DNA of 38,938 nt, taken from the sequence record ON470620.1; one strand, written 5' to 3'. Numbering within the stretch: position 1 is the stretch's first letter; the number at the start of each line of letters is the position of its first letter. The notes under the pieces are model-generated. The model did not search any database, was not told the origin of the DNA, and saw only the letters and a program-made list of their open reading frames with translations. Position numbers and translations under genes: made by a program. Of the stretch, positions 3,343 through 30,705 are shown piece by piece. This DNA is from Escherichia phage vB_EcoM-813R9.

Positions 3343-4352
3343 CGCGGCAGTTTTCCGTGGTCGCGTAGCCAGGCGGCAGTTTTCTCGATACCTTCATCCA
3401 GGGTGATGACCGGCTGATAACCTAACTCTTCCTGCGCACGCGTAATATCCAGCGTAAAGTCAAAATTCAACTTGGAGACGCCGTAGTGGGTCAGCGGCGG
3501 CTCTTTTGCTGACTTGCGGCCTAAACGCTCCATGCTGCGGGCGATCATATCCAGCATCGGGTAGGGGACGGAACGAATACGACAGTCAATATTCAACTCG
3601 TCGATCAGCTTCTGCACGATGCTGCGCAGTGTGCGATGCTCGCCGTTGGTGATGTTGTACACACGCCCGGAAGGTAGCTTATCGCAGGCTTCCTGGCTTG
3701 CCAGCCACATTGCGTGCACGGCATTTTCATAGTAGGTCATATCGACCAGCGCACTGCCGCCATGCGGTAACAGAATACTGCCGTAGTGGTGCATCATATG
3801 CGCCAGACGGGGAATAAAGACTTTATCGTGCGGTCCGAACAGACTTTGTGGGCGCAGAATAGTAAAGCGCGTTTGTGGATTCGCCTGCGAAAGCATATTG
3901 ATCACTTCTTCGCTGGCTGCTTTGCTGCGGGCAAACTCGTTGGCGAAGCGGTGAGGGCGAAAATCTTCTTTAATATCGCGATGGTGGTGATAATCGAAGT
4001 ACAGGGAGGGGGAAGAGATATGAATAAAGTTACGCACACCCCAGGCGACAGCCCATTCACCCAGGCGGCGAGTGGCGCGAACGTTAGCCAGATCGAAAGC
4101 CTGTTGTGTCCCCCAGGGTGAGGTAAAGCTGGAGCAGTGCCACAGCGTATCAATGCCCGCGAGCATCACTTTAGCTTGTGATGAAACCAGCTCGGTCAGA
4201 TCCGCCGGAACAAACTCTGCGCCCATTTTTTCCAGCAATTTGCCCATTGCCTCGTTGCGACCGGTCGCTCGCACGCTGATGCCTTTCTGGCATAAAAACT
4301 CTACCGCGTTTCGACCTAAGCCGCTGGTGGCGCCGGTAACCAGTACCTTCAT
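3339..4352 (-). CDS. ybjS: NAD-dependent epimerase/dehydratase family protein YbjS
   Basis: ORF 3339..4415 trimmed to Met22 ([15 protein letters not shown], Rossmann GxxGxxG motif), giving 337 aa. Confidence 0.85.
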
Positions 4353-4450
4353 ATCAATCCACTGTTGTTGAGAAAATAACGTGCGCATTCTTCCGTGATT
4401 TCCCCCATGATGCAATGGGAAACATGAAAGAATAACGCAGGTTTTGTCGA

Positions 4451-5203
4451 TTAATCTGTGCTTTGTTCTGCCAGTCTGGCGATTTGTTTTGCCATTCCGC
4501 GAAAAATAAACAGATGCGCGGGGATCATCAATAACCAGTAAAACAGCCCCGGCATACCGTGCGGATGCCAGAAAGCGCGGACATCGATAGTACGATAGTC
4601 GCCTTTATCTTCCAGGCTAAAACACAGTCGTCCCAGCCCCGGCGCTTTCATGCCAAATAACAACGTAAGTTGTTTTTCCGGTTCAACGACAATCACTTTC
4701 CAGCTATCCACCGCATCGCCAGTCTGTAAATATTCGCGCTCCGGGCGGCCTTTCGCCAGCTTATGACCGATCGCGCGGTCCATCAACGCCCGTGTCTGCC
4801 ACAAAATATTGCCAAAGAAATAACGCTCTTTACCGCCGATTTGGTTCACTACCTGCCATAAAGCAGCAAGGCTGGCGGACGTTTTAACGGTAAACCCCGC
4901 CTGTTTGGCAAAATAACCGTACTCCGGTCGCCAGCGGGCAAAGGCCTGAGCGTCGTAGCCCCAGTCGCTGGAGTTGACCAGTTTTTCCTCCTCTTTCAAC
5001 GTGCTACGTACCGCGTCATCGAAAGCGATCAGCCGTTGTGGGATGAGTGCACGTAGCGCGGTATCATCCGCCAGCAGATCGTGTTTCAGCCCCTGAATCA
5101 ACGCCCTGGCGGTGGTGGGCGGTACGGAAGTAATCACATTGAGAAACCACACCGAAATCCAGCGGGTGGGGAGGGGGATGGGGATCAACCAGCGGCGCTT
5201 ACC
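4451..5203 (-). CDS. ybjT: YbjT C-terminal portion; 5' part lost in the assembly gap
   Basis: Reading frame continues upstream of ORF 4451..5188 (..[15 protein letters not shown]..) until it hits the N-run. Confidence 0.75.
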
Positions 5204-5213
5204 NNNNNNNNNN
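5204..5213. other. Assembly gap of 10 N joining a chromosomal contig to a prophage contig
   Basis: Literal n characters in the sequence; an E. coli gene on one side and a phage tail-fibre gene on the other, both truncated. Confidence 0.95.
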
Positions 5214-6261
5214 GGTATGCGAGAAGACCAGCTACATCCTTTCCACTCAAATTAGTCAGCGTATTGTCCAGCGGTTGTTTACCTGCCAGCGCATTAAGCA
5301 TTGTCGTGGCAAAGTTCGGGTCATTCCCCAGCGCCGCAGCCAGTTCGTTCAGTGTATCCAGTGCAGCAGGTGCAGACCCCACCATTGCCGCAATTGCCGA
5401 TTTCACAAAAGCCGTGGTGGCAATCTGTGTATTGTTAACCGACTGTGCGGCAGTGGGGGCTGTTGGCGTTCCGGTGAGTGCCGGACTTAACAGCGGCGCT
5501 TTCAGTGCCAGCGCATTGTTAATGGTGGTACTGAATTTCGGGTCATTGTTTATGGCTGCGGCAATTTCTTTCAGCGTGTCCAGCGTGGCTGGCGCACCAT
5601 TAATAAGAGCCGTCAGTGCCACCTGAACAAACGCGGTGGTCGCAACCTGCGTGGTGTTATTCCCCGCCGCTGGCGTTGGCGCTTTGGGTGTCCCGGTAAA
5701 CATAGGACTTTCTTTGGGTGCATACTGTGAATGCGGGTCCGGTGCTGCAAGATGTTTTGCCATCTGATCATCCACGTACACCTTCAGCTCCAGTACCTTA
5801 TCATCCACATACTTGCGGGTTGCCAGCACGACGGCAGGGTCGATTTTCAGGGTGATATTGTCCGTGCTGCTGGTAATCAGCACCATGCGCACGGTCTGGG
5901 TGCGCCCGCTGCCTTCAGCCAGTTGCGGCTTATAGCTTTCCGGGCAGTTGCCCACGGCAATCAATGCCCCGGATTCATCAAACAGGCCCACTTCACGTAT
6001 CCACCAACCGCCCTCGTTTTCAGGGATCACCTGTTCAGCAATAATCTGGCTGCTGTTTTGCGGGTCGATATAGAGCATATTCAGCGCAGCCCGGCGTTTC
6101 TCATTTACCAGTGCAGTCTGCTTTGCGTCCGGCGTTGGTAATGTTCCGCCGCCATCGCCTACCGCCATATGGGTAATTTTTAACGGCACACCGAGCGCGG
6201 CGGCGCTGGCAAGTTTCGCCGCGCCAATATCCGTCAGCAGGGTATAAAATTTTGTGCTCAT
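5214..6261 (-). CDS. H: Tail fibre protein H, N-terminal ~350 aa; C-terminal receptor-binding part lost in the gap
   Basis: P2 gpH-like N-terminus MSTKFYTLLTDIGAAKLASAAALG..; start ATG overlaps the stop of gene I (ATGA). Confidence 0.85.
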
Positions 6262-7764: not shown

Positions 7765-8110
7765 TCTCTGCTCCTGTTGATACGGAAAGGGACACAGGCA
7801 CACCGTTATTCCGCCGCCCGGTCAGCTCCACCACCATTGAACCGTCAAAATTGCTGTTAATAGTGATGGAATCCAGCGTCAGCCGTGGCTCCCAGCGACT
7901 CAGTGCCACATACACAGCCGACATGACCTGCAGGCGTAACGCCGGATTTTGTGGCTGGTCTATCAGTGCCGACAGCAGGGAACCATATTCCCGACGGGCA
8001 ATGCGGCTACCCTGCGGCGTCAGCAAAATGTCCCGCACCGACTGGCGCAGATGGTCAATATCAGTAATGGCTTTACCGCTGGTATTGTTCATCCCGCTAT
8101 AAAGCGTCAT
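7751..8110 (-). CDS. W: Baseplate wedge protein W (gp25-like)
   Basis: 119-aa ORF with P2 gpW-like motifs (GSRIARREYGSLL, IDQPQNPAL). Confidence 0.85.
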   Translation of the reverse strand: MTLYSGMNNTSGKAITDIDHLRQSVRDILLTPQGSRIARREYGSLLSALIDQPQNPALRLQVMSAVYVALSRWEPRLTLDSITINSNFDGSMVVELTGRRNNGVPVSLSVSTGAENGSD

Positions 8111-8685
8111 ACCGGGCCTCCGGTTGTGTCGCCGCCTTTCAGGACGCCAGTATGCTGATGTGCATCAACCACAATTCCGTTAGAACTCATTGCACCGCCG
8201 CCCTGGGTAACACCACCATTGATCACTACTTCGCTGTTAATGCGTGTGCGGTCAGCCTCCAGTACAAACTCACTGGTTTTCAGGGTGATGTTGTCGGCAG
8301 CTTCAATGACCATGGATTTGATTCCCCTGACATACCAGCGCCCGGTAGCGGGTTCGTATTCAAACCAGCCACCGTCAGGATGTTCTGTCACACAGGCGTC
8401 CACCGACGCCGACGGTGGTGCGAACTGATTCGAATATACAGCGGGCAGCGCAAAGGCGGTTTCCAGATTGCCGCCCAGACTCAGCAGCACCACCTGCTCA
8501 CCTTCCGATGGTCGCCACCATGTGCGGGCATTACCCGCGCGCAGCGTCAGCCAGTTAATCCAGTTGGTTTCAAGGTCGCCCGTTTTCACCCGACAAAGCC
8601 AGTGTTCCCGGTCCACTTCGGTGACTACACCAGTGCGGATCAGGTTGGTGATAAGGCGCATGATTTCGGTTAATTGTGCGTTCAT
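8107..8685 (-). CDS. V: Baseplate spike/hub protein V
   Basis: 192-aa ORF with P2 gpV-like motifs (WLTLRAGNARTWWRPSEGEQV, HQHTG...GGDTTGGP). Confidence 0.85.
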   Translation of the reverse strand: MNAQLTEIMRLITNLIRTGVVTEVDREHWLCRVKTGDLETNWINWLTLRAGNARTWWRPSEGEQVVLLSLGGNLETAFALPAVYSNQFAPPSASVDACVTEHPDGGWFEYEPATGRWYVRGIKSMVIEAADNITLKTSEFVLEADRTRINSEVVINGGVTQGGGAMSSNGIVVDAHQHTGVLKGGDTTGGPV

Positions 8686-8785: not shown

Positions 8786-10045
8786 ATGTTTAGATTATCT
8801 AGTGTCAAGATTGAAGGTTTTTGGGGAAGACTAAATGCATCATGTTCATTTAATGAAGATGTAAATATTATTATTGGTCGAAATGGGACCGGTAAAACAA
8901 CCTTTATGAATATTCTTCACTCAGTTCTGGCATTAGAACTCGAATCACTAAATGAGAATAGTTTTGATAATGTAACAATAAAAATAAAAGAAGGAAGCAA
9001 AACTAAAACAATAAAAGTTGTGAGTAAATTTGACATAACTAAAGCTTTGCCTACGTTTGAATATACAATTTCTAGAAAGAAATATATTATCAGATCCTTT
9101 GAAGATCGTAGACTACCTATATATATGAGGAGAAAATATCAGGAAGACGTTGAAAAACTTAAGTTAGAGTTAGATAAATTAGTTGCTTTATCTTCTCTAT
9201 CAGTTTACCGACTTAGAAGCGGTGAAGATTTTGAAATCAGAGACAAATATGGCTCAAAATTAATCAACCCTGTTGATTACCGATTAGAACAATTATTGCA
9301 GAACCTAACAAAATATCAACTTTATTTATCACAAAGAGCTCGTGATGTTTCTGCAATATTACAGAAAGAGGTTCTTGCTTCTATTCTTTATAGTAAAGAA
9401 GATGGTATCGATGACACATTTAACTTTTCTTTTGATAAAGAAAAAGAACGTAGAAATTTAATAGCTGCATATTCTCAGCTTGGAGCTTTTGATAGTGATG
9501 TCAGAAAGAAGATTAACTTTCACGTTGAATCTATTGCCAAAACATTTGAAGAATTACGACTTGCAGAAAAAAATAACAGAAATATTTTAAATGTAGATTA
9601 CAGATCATTTGAGGCATTACGAAAGACGCAAAGAATTATAAAGATGTCTTTAAAATCCGAGGAGAAAATAAAAAACATATTTCTTCCTATAAATCTATTT
9701 TTAGAAACATTACATGAGTTCATAACCGATAAAAAATTTAATTTTATCTCCGGTGAGCTAGTAATAGAAAACGAGCATGGGCCGATTAGCCATAGTAATT
9801 TATCGTCTGGTGAAAAACAGCTATTAATTCTTTTTATTGAAACTTTGCTACAGCAAAACAAACCTTTCATCTATCTTACTGATGAACCAGAATTATCGCT
9901 ACATATTGCATGGCAACGAAAAATAATACCTGCAATCAAACAACTTAATCCTAATGCGCAAATTATCGCCGCTACGCATTCACCAGAAGTGGCTTCTAAA
10001 TATCGAAATGCAATCTTTGATATGGAGAAATTGGTTCATGGATGA
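8786..10045 (+). CDS. ariA: ABC/SMC-like ATPase (AAA15-type); candidate AriA of a PARIS-like defence module
   Basis: 419-aa ORF in AT-rich DNA; Walker A GRNGTGKTT, ABC signature LSSGEKQ, Walker B FIYLTDEPELSLH, H-loop ATHSPE; RBS aaagga. Confidence 0.6.
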   Translation: MFRLSSVKIEGFWGRLNASCSFNEDVNIIIGRNGTGKTTFMNILHSVLALELESLNENSFDNVTIKIKEGSKTKTIKVVSKFDITKALPTFEYTISRKKYIIRSFEDRRLPIYMRRKYQEDVEKLKLELDKLVALSSLSVYRLRSGEDFEIRDKYGSKLINPVDYRLEQLLQNLTKYQLYLSQRARDVSAILQKEVLASILYSKEDGIDDTFNFSFDKEKERRNLIAAYSQLGAFDSDVRKKINFHVESIAKTFEELRLAEKNNRNILNVDYRSFEALRKTQRIIKMSLKSEEKIKNIFLPINLFLETLHEFITDKKFNFISGELVIENEHGPISHSNLSSGEKQLLILFIETLLQQNKPFIYLTDEPELSLHIAWQRKIIPAIKQLNPNAQIIAATHSPEVASKYRNAIFDMEKLVHG

Positions 10046-10889
10046 TTTCCATTATTCTGCCGAAGCAGAAAATGTAATGAATTTATTTTACCAAGCTGAA
10101 GCCATGGTTTATGTTGAAGGCCCAGATGATATTTGCTTTTGGGAAATCATCTTTAATAAAGCTAGTTCATTAAAGGTTGAAATCAAAGATGTTGGCGGCT
10201 GTGAAGAATTAAAAAAATATATTGATAGAGTTACTGATGAAGATCTTCAAATTATAATTGCATGTGATGCAGACTTCACTACATTTGAAAATGAGGAAAA
10301 CGCTGATAGTCGCATTGTAAAAACTTATGGGCACTCCATCGAAAACACGTTTATTGACAAAACAGGCATATATAAGGCAATAAAAACTCTAGGAAAATTA
10401 CCTCAAAAGATAATGAACGATGTCAACGTCGATTCTTGGACAGAAGACTTTTATACCAAAATGGAACCCCTAATAAAACTTGATATATACAATCATATTT
10501 ATAGAAAAGGCATTTCAGTTATTGGTGACAGTGCAGATCGTTTCATGAAATCTAGAAAATCAAATGAAATTTGCGAGCAAAAAATCACGAGTTACAAAAA
10601 CACCATCATTGAAAAATTAGGTGTGGAACCAGATAACATCGATTCATCTTTCAAATCAAAATCGATAGAATACAGAAAGTGGCTTAGAGGTCATTTTCTT
10701 TTTTCTGCAGTACATAGGTACATTAGCACAACTGCAGAAAAAAATGGAAAAAAAGTATCCTTATCATATGAATCATTATATTCCAATTTAATGAATACAT
10801 TTGAATCCAATTTTACCAATACTCATATTGAGTTTAATCATTACCACGAAAAAATTAAAGCCATAAATATGCCACACGAAATGAAATAA
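10038..10889 (+). CDS. ariB: Toprim/DUF4435-like protein; candidate AriB effector of a PARIS-like module
   Basis: Start ATG overlaps the ariA stop (ATGGATGA); N-terminal VYVEGPDD with Glu27 and a downstream IIACDAD (DxD) motif as in Toprim/OLD-family nucleases; AT-rich. Confidence 0.55.
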   Translation: MDDFHYSAEAENVMNLFYQAEAMVYVEGPDDICFWEIIFNKASSLKVEIKDVGGCEELKKYIDRVTDEDLQIIIACDADFTTFENEENADSRIVKTYGHSIENTFIDKTGIYKAIKTLGKLPQKIMNDVNVDSWTEDFYTKMEPLIKLDIYNHIYRKGISVIGDSADRFMKSRKSNEICEQKITSYKNTIIEKLGVEPDNIDSSFKSKSIEYRKWLRGHFLFSAVHRYISTTAEKNGKKVSLSYESLYSNLMNTFESNFTNTHIEFNHYHEKIKAINMPHEMK

Positions 10890-10914: not shown

Positions 10915-11361
10915 TTATGTAGATAACCATTCAAATAGGGTATCCTTGATTTGATAATATTCTTTATCGTGGATACCCAATAGCTTACGCTCTGCGTAAC
11001 GGACCTCAGGTCCTTTGCGACTGACGCGATCACGCAGGCCGTAGTGATGAACGCGGGCAATGCGCTGCACCTTGCCTTCAAACTGCACGCTGGCAGAATC
11101 GGCGCTGGCGGCAGTTTTCAGGTATTTTGTGGTGCGCAGCTTCGCAAACATCTGACGTTTAATGCGGCCTTTTTTACTGCGTGCTGTTACCCGTCGCGGT
11201 TCATAGCTGCTGCCGTCAGGGTTGCGCTGCATCCTGATATTCTGCTGCTGTGTCCGGCGAAGTTCCTGCGCCAGTTGGCGCATCATACGGCTTCTTGCGG
11301 CTGGCTCCAGATTCGCCAGCAAGGCACTCAGCCAGTCGTCCACCTTCTGCAATTCAGCCAC
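10915..11361 (-). CDS. S: Tail completion protein S
   Basis: 148-aa ORF at the P2 gene S position after R; apparent GTG start; last ~25 codons lie in AT-rich DNA. Confidence 0.7.
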   Translation of the reverse strand: MAELQKVDDWLSALLANLEPAARSRMMRQLAQELRRTQQQNIRMQRNPDGSSYEPRRVTARSKKGRIKRQMFAKLRTTKYLKTAASADSASVQFEGKVQRIARVHHYGLRDRVSRKGPEVRYAERKLLGIHDKEYYQIKDTLFEWLST

Positions 11362-19713: not shown

Positions 19714-20865
19714 TCAGCTTATTTGACCTAATAATTCTTCCGCATATTTTTTATCACTATCCATCCGTTGCTGAACAGCATCCCTAAGATGCTCTTTCAA
19801 CTTATCAGGATAATTTTTACATGCATCAATCAATTTTGTTCGTAAAAGCTTAGCACCATTTACAATGGTGGCATAAGCTAAAGCATCAGCTAACTCCTTA
19901 ACTTTCACATCATCAGTAATGATAGAAGGGATTGAAAAAACGTAATATTTCGCAACATAATTTTGCGTATACCAACTATCATATAACAATCCAATTAAAG
20001 CATCACCAAGATCACCTCTTCTTTTAAATTTGCTACCAAATGTATTACCCCATGTTCCTATAGCTCCTTTGGTCGCATCAGAATAGAAATCCAAATATCC
20101 TTTTTTGCACTCTTCGATGATTATATTTTCCATTCTAATTAAAACATCATCAGGAAGATTTCTCCATGCGCTCGGCTTAATTATTCTAAATACATTAGCA
20201 AACTCAACATTATTGCTAGCCTTGCGTAACTCATCACCTAGCAACCGCATTGCGGCTTTTTCTTCCTCTCCTGAAAAGCGTTGGTTTATTGCTTTGAATA
20301 TAGAATCAATTTCCTTGGTTGGCCTTTCATTAAAGCGAGAAATTAAACTTTGGAAAAAATCTAGTAGTTTTTTTTCTGGAATTTGTGATATTAAAGCTTC
20401 TGCATAATCAGAATTATTTACAAAGTGAACCTCATAAATTCTTTCAAGAATTGCTGTGTAATCGAACTCAGCAACATCTCTTTTTAAATACTTAATAAAA
20501 GTATCCAACATGATCAATATTCTCATGCAGGAATCTTCTGTATCAGGGAAATTGTCATGTGTCCTTGGATTTCTTATACACTGATAGTAGCCTCTTAATA
20601 GTGCTTCAAATCCGCGCTGTTCGTCCTGCTCTGATACAGATTGAAGACTATTAATTTGGATTCTAGGTGATTGTCCACCCAAAACAGTACCAACAAGCTG
20701 AGCCCCATCCCCTTCACATTGCCCTTTTTCACGCAGCAAAGTTGTTAGATATTTGGTTCCTGCAAGTATTGCATCCGAAAATTGGTTGTTTTCCAGCCTA
20801 TTACCAATCGCTTCAACTAATTCCGCATCGAAATTATTTGTATTAAAGTTATTTTTTACAAACAT
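19714..20865 (-). CDS. Accessory protein with N-terminal HEPN-like domain (TIGR02391/Hypoth_Ymh-type, Rx4H) and large uncharacterised C-terminal domain; candidate abortive-infection/defence effector
   Basis: 383 aa from the ATG after an aggggag RBS (ORF-track start is GTG at 20868); motif IRNPRTHD = R98-x4-H103 preceded by ..QRGFEALLRG..; AT-rich; occupies the Q-to-A accessory slot (old/tin position in P2). Confidence 0.6.
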   Translation of the reverse strand: MFVKNNFNTNNFDAELVEAIGNRLENNQFSDAILAGTKYLTTLLREKGQCEGDGAQLVGTVLGGQSPRIQINSLQSVSEQDEQRGFEALLRGYYQCIRNPRTHDNFPDTEDSCMRILIMLDTFIKYLKRDVAEFDYTAILERIYEVHFVNNSDYAEALISQIPEKKLLDFFQSLISRFNERPTKEIDSIFKAINQRFSGEEEKAAMRLLGDELRKASNNVEFANVFRIIKPSAWRNLPDDVLIRMENIIIEECKKGYLDFYSDATKGAIGTWGNTFGSKFKRRGDLGDALIGLLYDSWYTQNYVAKYYVFSIPSIITDDVKVKELADALAYATIVNGAKLLRTKLIDACKNYPDKLKEHLRDAVQQRMDSDKKYAEELLGQIS

Positions 20866-20950
20866 CACACTCCCCTTTTTTTGAAAGGGTATTGTATTGA
20901 ACCTTGTTAAGATTTCTCAGATAAGTATCACACTATCTCAAGTTGCGCGC

Positions 20951-21174: not shown

Positions 21175-21408
21175 TTAATGCAGCCAGCTGTCGTCTTCCC
21201 ACACCTTCTGCATAATTTTCATCACTTGTTTTCTTTCTTCGTCCAGTTGCAGTCCGGTTAGTTCCACACCGTTAGAGCTACCTTTGCGAATGCGAATTAC
21301 CGTTTTGGGATACAGGGGGCGCAGATTGCGGTAAAGCTCGGATTCAAGGGCGTCCAGGGTAGACTGGCTAATCTTCTGCTCTTTATCGATCATTATTTCA
21401 ATGCGCAT
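21175..21408 (-). CDS. DinI-family protein (Tum/antirepressor-like SOS module component)
   Basis: MRIEIMIDKEQ...ELTGLQLDEERKQVMKIMQKVWEDDSWL resembles E. coli DinI over its whole length; RBS gaggtg. Confidence 0.7.
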   Translation of the reverse strand: MRIEIMIDKEQKISQSTLDALESELYRNLRPLYPKTVIRIRKGSSNGVELTGLQLDEERKQVMKIMQKVWEDDSWLH

Positions 21409-21418
21409 AAAAGTCACC

Positions 21419-21607
21419 TCAGCTGATGACATCCATTGAGCGGTTGTATTCGTGGGTTCTGATTTTTGCCATGAGTTCATCAGTCAATTCAGAAACCCAC
21501 TGCAGAGCCAGCCCCTTCTCTTCATCACTACACTCACTAGCCGCTACAAGCTTAAGAAAAAAATCAATGCGCTGGAGCTTCAAAGACTCCAAAAAATAGT
21601 CCTGCAT
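21419..21607 (-). CDS. Hypothetical small protein, first gene of the LexA-box-controlled operon
   Basis: 62-aa ORF from an ATG with a strong aggagga RBS, directly downstream of a LexA box. Confidence 0.5.
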   Translation of the reverse strand: MQDYFLESLKLQRIDFFLKLVAASECSDEEKGLALQWVSELTDELMAKIRTHEYNRSMDVIS

Positions 21608-26313: not shown

Positions 26314-26823
26314 TCACAGCAAACCGAATGAAGCACCAAGGCCAGTCATGGTATCAACTGCACTCGCCATCGCAGGATTAGCCTGTAAACGGGCTTGCAA
26401 TGAAACAGCAGCCAGCGCCATCAGTCGTGTTACAGAGTTAATGCTGCTGATAGCATCACGACGACCGGCACTAGTTTTTACATCACCAGATACCGCACCT
26501 GCTGCAACACGCCCGATCTCTGCAGTTGCGCTCATGACGTAATGCGGCAGTTTCTCTTTTGCTACCTCATTAATCGGTACACATGGCAGACAATGAATCT
26601 GTGCCAGAAAACCATCTACCAACGTTGAATCTTCAGTCAGATCGGTAAGCAGCCAGATTTCTGGTGCGGTTAATAAATGAGGTTGAGCTGGGTTCAGCTT
26701 GTTCCGCAGAATCTGCACATTCATGCCCGCACGTTCTGCCAGTTGCACCAGATTGTGGCGCAGTGCGAATGCACGACAGGCTTCATCAAAATGTGGATGT
26801 TTGGAAACTTGGTAATCAAACAT
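26314..26823 (-). CDS. cII: CII-like transcriptional activator (phage 186 type)
   Basis: [33 protein letters not shown]..; helix-turn-helix N-terminus; position after apl. Confidence 0.8.
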
Positions 26824-27143: not shown

Positions 27144-27172
27144 AAAACTGATACTAGGATCGCAAAAGAGAT

Positions 27173-27769
27173 ATGTCAACATCAAAGTACCCAAGTGAGA
27201 TCAAAATAAATCCCAATAAAGGTGGTAAGGCTGCGATTGAGCGATTAGTCGAAGCCTATGGCTTTACGACACGACAGGCTTTAGCTGATCACTTGGAAGT
27301 ATCAAAAAGCACACTAGCGAACAGGTATTTGCGGGATACATTTCCTGCTGACTGGATAATCCAATGTGCTCTTGAAACAGGAACCTCCCTCAAATGGTTA
27401 ACTACCGGACAAGGCCTTAAGCAAAGCTCGCTGACAGCAGCTACAGAAGAGCTTGTTAAGTTTCGCCTTGCCGCAGGCAAAATGATTGAAGACGGTTCAT
27501 ATGTCTTCGATTCATCATTTCTTCCTGCAAACCTTTCATCACCAATTGTTGTTCAGGATGGACTCGTCACATACATTTGTGATCAAAAATTTTCTGAAGT
27601 ACTTGATGGAAACTGGTTAATCAATATCGACGGAACCTATTCCATTCGAAAAATCACAAGGCTTCCTAAAGGAATGATTAAAATTACAACAGCAGAGAAT
27701 AGCTTTGAATGTGCATTTTCTGATATTGAAGTGGTTGCTTGTATAAGAAGTACAATAGTCTCGAATTAA
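27173..27769 (+). CDS. cI: CI immunity repressor (phage 186 type)
   Basis: 198-aa ORF with shared motifs ..AYGF.., ..LANRY.., ..CALETG..L.WL.TG.G; transcribed toward int. Confidence 0.8.
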   Translation: MSTSKYPSEIKINPNKGGKAAIERLVEAYGFTTRQALADHLEVSKSTLANRYLRDTFPADWIIQCALETGTSLKWLTTGQGLKQSSLTAATEELVKFRLAAGKMIEDGSYVFDSSFLPANLSSPIVVQDGLVTYICDQKFSEVLDGNWLINIDGTYSIRKITRLPKGMIKITTAENSFECAFSDIEVVACIRSTIVSN

Positions 27770-27789
27770 TATAGTAAAAGGATTTTAAA

Positions 27790-29466
27790 ATGAATTCATT
27801 TGCCATCGTTATACTCTTATTAGCATTTCTCGCCCCTGTTCTAGCTGTAATATTATTTAAACAAAGTAAAAAACACAAAGCGGCTATAGATAACCTGACA
27901 GCTAACAACATAGCCCTTTCTAACCAACTGATTGAAAATCAAGAAAAACTAGCACAGACCGTACGAGAATTATCAGAGCTTGAAGGGCGAGCAGCACCAT
28001 TGTGGCAATACGAAGAATTGCACAGCGCAGTAATGGATGCAGAGAATAAGATAAAAAATGCGGACTCAATAGCCAAGCAAAAAATAGATGAAGCCCAAAT
28101 TAAGGCGGCTAAAACAGTAAACGAAGCAAATTATCAAGCTCAGATGACAATAAGCAACGCTAATAGCGAAGCTATAGCAATCACCAAAGACGCTCGCGAT
28201 GCACGCCTGAAAGCCAAAGAACGTCTTGATAATGCTAATAATAAAGCAAATGAGCTAATCTCAAATGCTAATGACAATGCAGTAAAAATTATTTCTGATG
28301 CAGAAGAAAGAGCAAAGGAGATTGCTGGTTCAGCATATGAAGCTAAAGAGTTTGCAGAAAAATATGAAGCAGTTGCAAAATCAATGAAAAATAAAATTGA
28401 AGGTTATGGTGATGAATGGATCATCCCTAACCGTAGTGTACTTGATGAGCTGGCAGAAAATTATGAATTTACAGATGCAGGCAAGGAATTACAAAAAGCC
28501 AGAGAGTTAACCAAATCATTAATAAAAACTAATAAAGCTGCTTCGTGTGATTATGTTGAGCAAAACAGGCGTAATACTGCCATAAACTTTGTTTTGGATG
28601 CCTTCAATGGAAGAGTTGACAGTATTTTATCAAAAGTCAAACACAACAATTTTGGAAAACTTTCCCAAGAAATAAAAGATGCATTTCAACTAGTAAATTA
28701 CAATGGCTCTGCCTTTAGGTCCGCAAAAATAAGTGACATCTATCTTCAGGCAAGACTCAACGAGCTAAAATGGGGTGTAGCAGTTAATGAAATTATGCTC
28801 GAAGAAAAAGAAGAGCAAAGAAGGATTAAAGAACAGCTTCGTGAAGAGGAAAGAGCTCGTAGAGAATATGAAAAAGCGATAAAAGAAGCTGAAAAAGAAG
28901 AAAAAGCTATTCAGCAAGCTATAAATAAAGCAACGAAAGAACTTATGCTTGCAAATGAAGAACAACGCTTAGCTTTAGAGCAAAAAATAGCTGAACTACA
29001 GTTAAAATATGAAGAAGCTGAAGCTAAAAATCAACGAGCTATTTCTATGGCTCAACAAACCAGATCAGGCCACGTCTATATCATTAGTAATATTGGTTCA
29101 TTTGGCGAAGATGTATATAAAATTGGAATGACACGCCGCCTTGAACCACTTGATCGTGTTCGTGAACTCGGAGATGCTAGTGTTCCTTTTTCGTTCGATG
29201 TTCATGCGATGATTTATAGTGATGATGCACCATCATTAGAAAACCATCTGCATAAAGTTTTCAACGAAAAGCAGGTCAATAAAATTAACTCACGAAAAGA
29301 GTTTTTTAACGTAAATTTAAAAGAAATCAAATCAGTTATTGAAGACATGAACATCAACGCCCACTGGACAATGTTTGCAGAGGCGAAAGAATATAGAGAG
29401 TCTCTATCTATTGAGCAGGAGCGCAAAGCAGCCACTTCCGCCAACGATGAACTACATGTTGCTTAG
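27790..29466 (+). CDS. Membrane-anchored coiled-coil protein with C-terminal GIY-YIG-like (T5orf172/MUG113-type) domain; candidate defence/superinfection-exclusion cargo
   Basis: 558 aa; N-terminal TM helix FAIVILLLAFLAPVLAVILF; long Ala/Lys/Glu-rich coiled-coil; C-terminal GHVYIISN..VYKIGMTRR..PFSF..ENHLH..REFF; AT-rich; RBS aaagga right after the cI stop. Confidence 0.65.
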   Translation: MNSFAIVILLLAFLAPVLAVILFKQSKKHKAAIDNLTANNIALSNQLIENQEKLAQTVRELSELEGRAAPLWQYEELHSAVMDAENKIKNADSIAKQKIDEAQIKAAKTVNEANYQAQMTISNANSEAIAITKDARDARLKAKERLDNANNKANELISNANDNAVKIISDAEERAKEIAGSAYEAKEFAEKYEAVAKSMKNKIEGYGDEWIIPNRSVLDELAENYEFTDAGKELQKARELTKSLIKTNKAASCDYVEQNRRNTAINFVLDAFNGRVDSILSKVKHNNFGKLSQEIKDAFQLVNYNGSAFRSAKISDIYLQARLNELKWGVAVNEIMLEEKEEQRRIKEQLREEERARREYEKAIKEAEKEEKAIQQAINKATKELMLANEEQRLALEQKIAELQLKYEEAEAKNQRAISMAQQTRSGHVYIISNIGSFGEDVYKIGMTRRLEPLDRVRELGDASVPFSFDVHAMIYSDDAPSLENHLHKVFNEKQVNKINSRKEFFNVNLKEIKSVIEDMNINAHWTMFAEAKEYRESLSIEQERKAATSANDELHVA

Positions 29467-29524
29467 CAATGTATGTTTCATAGTAATCACACATTGATTA
29501 CTGGTTACATATACAGTTAAATTT

Positions 29525-29548
29525 AGCCCTCTGATATGAGGGCTTTTT
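29525..29548 (+). terminator. Rho-independent terminator after the cargo gene, abutting the int start codon
   Basis: agccctc-tgatat-gagggct hairpin followed by ttttt and then ATG of int. Confidence 0.6.
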
Positions 29549-30601
29549 ATGGCAGTACGAAAACTAACCACAGGGAAATGGCTTTGCGAATGTTACCCCG
29601 CCGGACGAAGTGGGCGTCGTGTGCGTAAACAATTCGCTACCAAAGGCGAAGCACTGGCTTTTGAGCGCCACACGATGGAAGAAACCGAAGCAAAGCCCTG
29701 GCTGGGTGAATCAGTGGATCGTCGAACACTGAAAGACGTGGTTGAGCTATGGTTCAAACTACATGGTAAATCTCTGACAGCTGGGCAGCATGTCTATGAC
29801 AAATTGCTGTTGATGGTTGACGCTCTGGGCAATCCTCTTGCAACCGATCTCACCTCTAAAATGTTTGCCCACTATCGAGATAAACGCCTGACAGGCGAGA
29901 TCTACTTCAGCGAGAAATGGAAGAAAGGAGCAAGCCCGGTCACCATTAACCTGGAGCAAAGCTATCTAAGTAGTGTTTTTAGCGAACTATCCCGTCTGGG
30001 CGAATGGTCGTATCCGAACCCACTGGAGAACATGCGAAAATTCACCATCGCAGAAAAAGAGATGGCATGGCTTACCCATGAGCAGATTGTTGAATTGCTG
30101 GCTGATTGCAAACGTCAGGACCCAATTCTGGCACTGGTAGTTAAGATATGCTTAAGCACAGGCGCACGCTGGCGTGAAGCCGTAAATCTTACCCGCTCAC
30201 AGGTGACCAAATACCGAATTACCTTTGTCAGAACGAAGGGGAAGAAAAACAGAAGCATCCCTATCAGTAAAGAGCTTTACGAAGAGATCATGGCGCTTGA
30301 TGGGTTCAATTTCTTCACAGACTGCTATTTTCAATTTTTATCCGTGATGGAAAAAACGTCTATCGTGCTCCCTCGCGGTCAACTCACACACGTTCTGCGC
30401 CATACGTTTGCGGCGCACTTCATGATGTCGGGTGGAAACATTCTGGCCTTACAAAAAATTCTCGGACACCACGATATAAAAATGACTATGCGTTACGCAC
30501 ATCTGGCACCGGATCATCTAGAAACGGCGCTCCGTTTCAATCCTCTGGCAACGCTGCCAAGTGGCGACAAAGTGGCGGCAGCGGTTGGCATTACCCCGTA
30601 A
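29549..30601 (+). CDS. int: Tyrosine integrase (P2/186 family)
   Basis: 350 aa; catalytic-domain motifs ..STGARWREA.., HVLRHTFAAHF, MRYAHLAPDHL; adjacent to the chromosome junction. Confidence 0.9.
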   Translation: MAVRKLTTGKWLCECYPAGRSGRRVRKQFATKGEALAFERHTMEETEAKPWLGESVDRRTLKDVVELWFKLHGKSLTAGQHVYDKLLLMVDALGNPLATDLTSKMFAHYRDKRLTGEIYFSEKWKKGASPVTINLEQSYLSSVFSELSRLGEWSYPNPLENMRKFTIAEKEMAWLTHEQIVELLADCKRQDPILALVVKICLSTGARWREAVNLTRSQVTKYRITFVRTKGKKNRSIPISKELYEEIMALDGFNFFTDCYFQFLSVMEKTSIVLPRGQLTHVLRHTFAAHFMMSGGNILALQKILGHHDIKMTMRYAHLAPDHLETALRFNPLATLPSGDKVAAAVGITP

Positions 30602-30619
30602 TAACCACCACTGACCACC

Positions 30620-30657
30620 AACCTAACTTATTGTTTTTAACCTAACTTATTGTTTTC
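30620..30657. repeat. Tandem 19-bp direct repeat (aacctaacttattgtttt[t/c] x2); candidate integrase arm-type sites or att-associated duplication
   Basis: Two adjacent near-identical 19-mers immediately after the int stop. Confidence 0.55.
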
Positions 30658-30662
30658 ATTAA

Positions 30663-30686
30663 CCCGTTTACATAAATGGGTTTTTT
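30663..30686 (+). terminator. Hairpin plus T-run, probable int / bidirectional terminator
   Basis: cccgttta..taaatggg stem followed by tttttt. Confidence 0.45.
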
Positions 30687-30705
30687 GTTATCTAAAACTT
30701 ATCTA

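Follow-up and report, generated by a model that had tools for sequence, protein, structure and literature searches.

The region described here lies in a stretch of 38,938 nucleotides (nt) from Escherichia phage vB_EcoM-813R9 (sequence record ON470620.1), which in its whole length is called the window, and comprises the interval from the stop of the repressor gene cI to the start of the integrase gene int (27770..29548). The sole long open reading frame (ORF) of this interval encodes a protein of the SNIPE (PD-lambda-1) family, whose founding member is a membrane-bound anti-phage nuclease. The ORF begins 20 nt behind the TAA stop codon of cI (27767-27769), and a Shine-Dalgarno-like motif lies within this short gap (Table 1). 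With a GC content of 36.9%, and of 27% at third codon positions, the gene differs from the window as a whole (49.7%) and from int (48.8%), whereas cI is likewise AT-rich (40% GC), and cI and the SNIPE gene form one AT-rich module. An initial annotation of this DNA had described an AT-rich gene of 558 codons between cI and int with a ribosome-binding site right after the cI stop, which is exactly what is found.

The family assignment is based on several profile collections. The PADLOC PD-Lambda-1 model PDLC03976 matches the protein with 400 bits (3.1e-120), aligning amino acids (aa) 106-550 with positions 36-481 of the 491 in the model, the second PD-Lambda-1 model PDLC03977 reaches 4.9e-116, so that the two together span aa 105-551, and PHROG 1847 matches the SNIPE-family protein with 1e-132. 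The 400-bit match and the existence of identical public proteins show that the gene is not a chance ORF. The Pfam search gave DUF4041, T5orf172 (aa 427-520, 3e-17) and MUG113 (aa 443-520, 4e-20), each above its own gathering score, and the nuclease-like domain that the initial annotation had placed at the C-terminus is therewith identified; T5orf172 and MUG113 are both members of Pfam's GIY-YIG clan. The motifs by which it had been recognized are present as GHVYIISN (427), VYKIGMT (442), PFSF (466) and ENHLH (484), but the last one, given as REFF, really reads RKEFF (502). The proposed N-terminal transmembrane anchor and long coiled coil are also found: aa 4-23 is the only segment that exceeds a hydropathy of 1.6, it is followed by the lysine-rich flank KQSKKHK, and AlphaFold2 (AF2) predicts long helices behind it. 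The protein therefore has all sequence hallmarks of SNIPE, namely the family profile, the N-terminal transmembrane helix, DUF4041, and a C-terminal nuclease with the catalytic glutamate. In public databases, the gene is already known and is recognized as SNIPE family by PADLOC, Pfam and RefSeq. Its name in RefSeq is 'SNIPE associated domain-containing protein' where the annotation is recent and 'DUF4041 domain-containing protein' elsewhere, relatives carry the name 'GIY-YIG nuclease family protein' in RefSeq and UniRef, and PF13250 is now labelled 'SNIPE' in the precomputed Pfam annotation. Proteins that are 99-100% identical to the 558-aa protein occur in public E. coli records, and copies with 82-85% identity occur in Citrobacter, Salmonella, Klebsiella, Enterobacter and relatives.

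Table 1. Features of the cI-int region in the window, with the evidence for each.
Feature	Position	Strand	Evidence
pR-like sigma-70 promoter TTGACA-17-TAGTAT, facing apl/cII	27151..27179	-	consensus scan, 10/12 matches
cI repressor, directly upstream gene, 198 aa	27173..27769	+	Pfam Phage_CI_repr 8e-32, Phage_CI_C 4e-27
Shine-Dalgarno-like AAGGA, 7 nt ahead of ATG	27778..27782	+	read directly from the sequence
SNIPE / PD-lambda-1 family gene	27790..29466	+	558 codons, ATG to TAG; sole long ORF of the interval
Single N-terminal transmembrane helix, aa 4-23, FAIVILLLAFLAPVLAVILF	27799..27858	+	Kyte-Doolittle 19-mer maximum 3.16
About 11 hendecad (11-residue) repeats in a long helix, aa 80-200	28027..28389	+	lag-11 self-identity and AF2 helix 72-203
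DUF4041 / 'SNIPE' domain PF13250, aa 267-322	28588..28755	+	Pfam 3.1e-12, 46.6 bits vs cut-off 27
Glu/Lys/Arg-rich linker helix, aa 331-423	28780..29058	+	79% A/E/K/Q/L/R, without Pro or Gly
T5orf172/MUG113 (GIY-YIG-type) nuclease domain, aa 427-520	29068..29349	+	Pfam profiles
E484 codon, counterpart of catalytic E414 in reference SNIPE	29239..29241	+	pairwise alignments
Conserved int leader, not part of the cargo	29467..29548	+	about 80 nt aligning in all compared prophages whatever the cargo
Tyrosine integrase int, 350 aa, last prophage gene before host rcdA	29549..30601	+	Pfam Int_N and Phage_integrase

PD-lambda-1 came from a functional selection in E. coli ECOR26 (RCP76574.1, 500 aa, with DUF4041 and T5orf172; Vassallo et al., 2022, PMC9519451), and the protein was renamed SNIPE later (Saxton et al., Nature 2026, PMC13190303). 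As comparison sequence, we used the 500-aa protein annotated 'PD-lambda-1' in the lambdoid phage PhiR26_1, which has the same length as RCP76574.1. Both proteins have the same order of parts, i.e. transmembrane helix, helical stalk, DUF4041, linker helix, and T5orf172-type GIY-YIG nuclease, in both the transmembrane helix begins after 3-4 residues and is followed by a positively charged cytoplasmic flank, and both are prophage-borne single-gene systems. They are 51% identical over aa 265-541, the region of DUF4041, linker and nuclease, with the nuclease domain as the most similar part (76%), followed by the linker helix (49%) and DUF4041 (25%). The catalytic glutamate is kept, with E484 of the window protein corresponding to E414 of the reference. 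In contrast, the first ~264 residues of the window protein have no significant similarity to the reference, and its N-terminal region is ~70 residues longer, giving 558 aa instead of 500 aa. The genomic context differs as well, as the reference copy resides between ren and rha in a lambdoid phage, whereas the copy in the window resides in the cI-int operon of a 186-like myovirus prophage.

The window is E. coli DNA, and the 186-like nature of its prophage is apparent from CII (CP76), a DinI/Tum-like gene, the gpA replication protein and P2-type morphogenesis genes, with Fil in the matching N61 prophage, and the host genes rcdA-ybjJ-ybjI-ybjH-mdfA follow downstream of int as in matching E. coli genomes. 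In phage 186 itself (NC_001317), the cI stop abuts the int start within the pL 'lysogenic operon', so that the adjacency of repressor and integrase genes assumed by the initial annotation is real, and so is its view of the gene as an insertion, since closely related prophages carry other genes in the cI-to-int interval. Full-length copies of the gene are present in 165 of 5,426 complete E. coli genomes, and the whole cII-to-int arrangement in 164. To sample relatives, 50 rows were drawn at regular intervals from the ranked list of 1,331 matching records, and SNIPE is present in 7 of them. Among related prophages that occupy the att site at rcdA as well and are nearly identical in cII and int, other genes are found after cI: while SNIPE (558 aa) follows a 198-aa cI, a 63-71-aa ORF (the 63-aa forms being YdcA-family) follows a 189-aa cI, a 443-aa KAP NTPase (PADLOC candidate PDC-S20, 1e-173) follows a 191-aa cI, and a 325-aa hypothetical protein that has no Pfam or PADLOC match follows a 314-aa double-HTH cI (two repressor helix-turn-helix matches), the latter arrangement being the same in Klebsiella phage 4LV2017; other small ORFs also occur in this place. 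As unrelated genes fill the cI-int slot in related prophages, the SNIPE-family gene is accessory cargo and not a core gene, and the initial annotation's refuting case of a conserved core component in the whole phage family does not apply. Each cI type that was seen pairs with its own cargo (27173..29466 in the window, compared with the loci L006-L011 of the relatives). The megablast coverage of the cargo-swapped records amounts to 44-46% and spans cII/apl and int only; cI allele and cargo are therefore swapped together, as one unit of 'cI plus cargo'. The module of a 198-aa cI, a 20-nt gap, the 558-aa SNIPE and int is also present in Klebsiella and Salmonella diarizonae, beside rcdA-like TetR and MFS genes, and in Klebsiella phage KP12 (OM835953.1; SNIPE orthologue at 3691..5367). 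The KP12 record, which is classified under Vequintavirinae although it has P2/186-like genes, labels the orthologue as 'chromosome segregation ATPase'; both the label and the classification look like annotation errors.

The cI-int slot is already described as a minor P2-type defence hotspot: a hotspot between cI repressor and integrase was reported for K139-like P2-related Vibrio phages (Rousset et al., 2022, PMC9122126), and the 'between integrase and primase' position holds 8% of the P2 defence systems (PMC9122126; NAR 2026, PMC13586616). Like the published hotspots of the P2/186 family, the slot in the window has variable anti-phage cargo at a fixed position in a conserved P2-like backbone (PMC9122126; PMC13586616), but here it is part of the lysogenic operon, behind cI, and one particular cI allele accompanies it. 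PD-Lambda-1, SNIPE and DUF4041 are unmentioned in the main texts of PMC9122126 and PMC13586616.

With respect to expression, a simple consensus scan for promoters and terminators from position 26800 onward detected no sigma-70-like site on the plus strand upstream of the SNIPE gene, and the only terminator-like match ahead of the gene is weak and lies inside cI (27484..27512). The initial annotation had taken co-transcription with the repressor in the lysogen to be likely, and the placement suits this: together with the 20-nt gap, the scan makes it likely that the SNIPE gene is co-transcribed with cI from pL. The pR-like site on the minus strand would fit the face-to-face pR/pL layout of phage 186, an assignment that we infer by comparison with the 186 record. 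Between the SNIPE gene and int lies a leader that phage 186, with its cI abutting int, does not have. It folds with -30.3 kcal/mol (z = -5.0) and contains as its second hairpin the G+C-rich AGCCCTC-TGATAT-GAGGGCT (29525..29544), with a GAGG in the 3' arm, followed by a T-run and the int ATG, which together give a terminator-like match. The leader is probably a terminator or a translational attenuator by which the expression of int from the transcript of the lysogen is kept low, and, conserved behind all compared kinds of cargo, it is a part of the phage backbone and not of the SNIPE cassette. An Rfam match of this leader to RyhB (28.5 bits, gathering score 55) was taken as chance or terminator-driven and rejected.

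What the gene is likely to do can be derived from the published work on the reference SNIPE. This is an inner-membrane nuclease that cleaves siphovirus DNA during, not after, injection, and PhoA/LacZ fusions revealed an N-out/C-in topology with a tiny periplasmic N-terminus and the rest in the cytoplasm; a single transmembrane helix inside the first 70 residues is found in 59% of the SNIPE homologues (PMC13190303). The DUF4041 domain of the reference has two binding partners, DNA and the tape measure protein of the phage, and the protein associates with ManYZ, which lambda requires for DNA entry (PMC13190303). Without its transmembrane helix, the reference protein goes to the nucleoid, causes double-strand breaks in the chromosome and is highly toxic, and the exchange E414A kills both the defence and this toxicity (PMC13190303). 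Infected at high multiplicity, cells with the reference SNIPE survive and grow, in contrast to the abortive-infection control PD-lambda-3, and SNIPE does not interfere with the induction of a resident prophage; of the phages in the BASEL collection, siphoviruses are the only targets, not myoviruses or podoviruses (PMC13190303).

We conclude, with a probability of about 0.88, that the gene encodes a SNIPE (PD-lambda-1) defence protein and that a 186/P2-like prophage of E. coli carries it in the lysogenic cI-int operon as accessory cargo. The architecture, the family membership, the conserved catalytic glutamate, the accessory status and the genomic placement are properties of the window gene itself. 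Its membrane localization, DNA cleavage during injection, direct defence and siphovirus specificity would carry over from the 51%-identical homologue. By this analogy, the lysogen would produce the protein, most likely from the pL transcript that also encodes cI, and its N-terminal helix would insert into the inner membrane, with the short N-terminus in the periplasm and the stalk, DUF4041 and the GIY-YIG-type nuclease in the cytoplasm, the tether holding the nuclease off the chromosome. When a siphovirus injects its DNA, the stalk and DUF4041 could engage the injection machinery, by way of the tape measure protein, of an inner-membrane protein of the host, or of both; the nuclease would then cut the entering DNA, and the cell would survive. 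The resident prophage should be spared on induction, as its DNA is already inside the cell. P2/186-like phages are myoviruses, and a 186-like prophage with SNIPE would therefore, as we infer, hit competitors and not its own kind. The value of this assignment is mainly one of annotation: a host with this prophage would be constitutively protected against the entry of siphovirus DNA, without suicide of the cell, and as the same gene is present in about 3% of the complete E. coli genomes, it is relevant to phage host range and to the prediction of phage therapy outcome.

Several points weigh against this conclusion. The first ~264 residues cannot be aligned to the reference and DUF4041 is only 25% identical, so that the target range and the membrane partner may differ. 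Co-transcription with cI is deduced only from the spacing and a simple promoter scan, and AT-rich foreign genes can be silenced in E. coli. The globular domains, moreover, could not be modelled with confidence, and the predicted GIY-YIG fold rests on the profile matches and on the homology to the reference. The full-length AF2 model, calculated with 31 homologues that are all at least 82% identical to the query, has a mean predicted local distance difference test score (pLDDT) of 52. Helices were predicted for residues 2-64, 72-203 and 315-423 (the latter as 315-387 and 390-423) with a pLDDT of about 65-86, whereas the globular domains stayed below 50, because the accessible homologues are too alike among themselves. 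Within the nuclease part of this model, the order of elements is beta-beta-alpha-beta-alpha with E484 in helix 2, which would fit a GIY-YIG fold, at a pLDDT below 50. When the nuclease domain was modelled alone from the single sequence, one of five models exceeded a pLDDT of 45, this one reaching 66, and a Foldseek search of the PDB with it gave nothing below E = 0.2. A search of PDB chains by sequence gave no match at E up to 0.01.

Four other explanations were considered. The initial annotation had suggested a role in superinfection exclusion or abortive infection, and the first part of this proposal agrees with the membrane nuclease that excludes phages, as shown for the founding member PD-lambda-1/SNIPE (PMC13190303). 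An abortive-infection toxin, with infection freeing or activating the nuclease so that host and phage DNA are degraded and the infected cell dies, could be imagined on the grounds that the reference protein becomes highly toxic and cuts the chromosome when it lacks its transmembrane helix (PMC13190303). However, the characterized homologue cuts DNA during injection only and is a direct defence with cell survival and growth at high multiplicity of infection, in contrast to PD-lambda-3, and we therefore regard this second part of the proposal as improbable. Just as improbable is the possibility that the gene, though truly of the SNIPE family, is silent or without function in the lysogen, being silenced, for example, or not transcribed past cI. 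While the very AT-rich foreign DNA would be in line with this, the ORF is intact and identical or nearly so in many genomes, and the recurrence of the cI-SNIPE-int module with an 82-85% identical protein across E. coli, Klebsiella, Citrobacter, Salmonella and Enterobacter argues for purifying selection.

A slightly smaller chance still has to be given to a selfish endonuclease of the GIY-YIG/T5orf172 homing type, which would have brought itself in between the repressor and integrase genes and would play no part in defence. GIY-YIG-type domains are found in phage homing endonucleases, the protein has Pfam matches to T5orf172 and MUG113, and the gene is AT-rich relative to its surroundings. This does not account for the complete SNIPE architecture with membrane anchor and DUF4041, nor for the movement of the gene with a particular cI allele as one module of identical spacing across genera, and the unrelated cargo in the same slot of relatives is what one would expect of a recombinational hotspot rather than of homing. 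Finally, a structural or cytoskeletal coiled-coil protein, as implied by the label 'chromosome segregation ATPase' in KP12, by 'V-type ATPase subunit' labels such as the 'vacuolar-type H+-ATPase subunit H' of JGI, and by weak matches to SMC, DivIVA and V-ATPase E, is for practical purposes refuted by the domain searches, since these matches reach 14-22 bits against curated cut-offs of 131-729 (SMC_prok_A, for instance, 15.7 bits against 729) in coiled-coil stretches only, and the Pfam search gave no ATPase family.

The N-terminal half of the SNIPE protein in the window deserves closer consideration. In aa 80-200, the lag-11 self-identity is 0.28 (z = 6.2 against shuffles) with a hydrophobic period of 3.6, whereas the stalk of the reference SNIPE is of the heptad type, with a period of 3.5 and without a lag-11 signal. 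Hendecad periodicity is characteristic of the peripheral stalks of ATP synthase (subunit b) and V-ATPase. The hendecad repeats explain the weak NCBIfam matches to V-ATPase subunit E and F-ATPase subunit b, and the segment is an ATP-synthase-b/V-ATPase-E-like stalk that constitutes the variable 'adapter' region. Membership in the LmuB, SMC, DivIVA or V-ATPase families was rejected, as these weak matches come from coiled-coil composition or periodicity. The N-terminal diversity of the SNIPE family is already described: the N-terminal regions are hypervariable 'adapters', and 'ATP synthase subunit b'-like N-termini are listed for 66+4 homologues with transmembrane helix (Supplementary Table 3 of PMC13190303). 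In DUF4041 of the reference, the exchanges W257R and E223K raised the targeting of Bas14, W257R also boosted the binding of the tape measure protein, substitutions at both positions altered how tape measure proteins are targeted, and both substitutions are frequent in homologues (PMC13190303). The corresponding positions in the window protein are K327 (for W257) and S292 (for E223), and it is speculation that the target range may differ through these two residues. Somewhat further, and only tentatively, the 558-aa variant with its link to cI could represent a SNIPE subtype with a function of its own, which uses an inner-membrane partner other than ManYZ and has different phage targets. Coupled to one repressor allele, it would then form a mobile module for 'immunity plus entry-exclusion' that P2/186-like prophages exchange as a unit across several genera of enterobacteria. 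The interest that remains is in the targets that are recognized by the stalk and DUF4041, both divergent in this cI-linked subtype, but the question of a variable N-terminal and DUF4041 recognition was already raised in the 2026 SNIPE paper, and no further new question arises here.

Other known systems resemble SNIPE in part. Zorya, Kiwa and classical superinfection exclusion proteins also act at the inner membrane during DNA injection (PMC13190303), but they are unrelated in sequence and architecture, SNIPE being one polypeptide with its own nuclease, and there is no Zorya or Kiwa model among the five PADLOC matches of the window protein. The PADLOC candidate PDC-S57 (4e-20) and short phage proteins of the T5orf172 or 'GIY-YIG nuclease family' (ES18 gp19, phiP27) have the T5orf172 domain in common with the window protein, and the identity of the short proteins, 55-59%, is restricted to about aa 380-545, its nuclease end.

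As to the rest of the window, a run of 10 N at 5204..5213 joins two contigs. On its left are the host genes artP-ybjP-ybjQ-amiD-ybjS and a cut ybjT, and on its right is a tail-fibre gene; the cut in it falls where, in the related N61 prophage, a tail-fibre segment is invertible and a recombinase gene is present. A chromosomal inversion at ~5200, possibly invertase-made, that would have brought artP-ybjT next to the truncated tail-fibre gene was considered and rejected, as the junction is an artefact of scaffolding; among the complete E. coli genomes, none has a region that covers 80% or more of the stretch spanning 5204..5213. The prophage end from the tail sheath gene to ogr and the second att site lie outside the window, and no repeat of at least 12 bp was found between the int-rcdA spacer and the rest of the window, the other prophage end being outside.

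In relatives, a further slot of variable content separates int from the rcdA gene of the host (L009:3372-4124, L010:3340-4568, L012:6910-7770); its counterpart in the window (30602..30705) is empty. It contains a DUF2971 protein (PADLOC PDC-S31, 4e-23), a Panacea-domain protein with a hypothetical protein, an 89-aa ORF, or a Klebsiella pentapeptide-repeat protein, and it matches the 'integrase-att' minor hotspot of the 2026 NAR survey (PMC13586616). In the window prophage, all three P2-type hotspots contain known or candidate defence cargo, and the prophage can be regarded as a compact three-locus defence carrier, because a HEPN-like gene and a PARIS-like pair fill the two hotspots other than the cI-int slot. 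The HEPN-like gene (19714..20868, minus strand) lies in the classic gpA-gpQ hotspot, adjoining the DinI/Tum-like gene (21175..21480, minus strand), and encodes a 384-aa protein with a Hypoth_Ymh/HEPN-like N-terminus (Pfam 3e-23) and PADLOC matches to PD-Lambda-3_B (2e-14) and Aga_HEPN (2e-9), the remaining ~250 residues being without assignment. The PARIS-like pair (8786..10889, plus strand) is on the strand opposite to its neighbours, the gpV-like (8107..8685, minus strand) and gpS-like (10915..11361, minus strand) tail genes; it consists of a 419-aa protein that matches AriA (PADLOC 6e-40; Pfam AAA_21/AAA_15) and an overlapping 311-aa ORF that matches AriB (PADLOC 3e-24; Pfam DUF4435). In strain N61, the slot of this pair is occupied by a DUF2971 gene.

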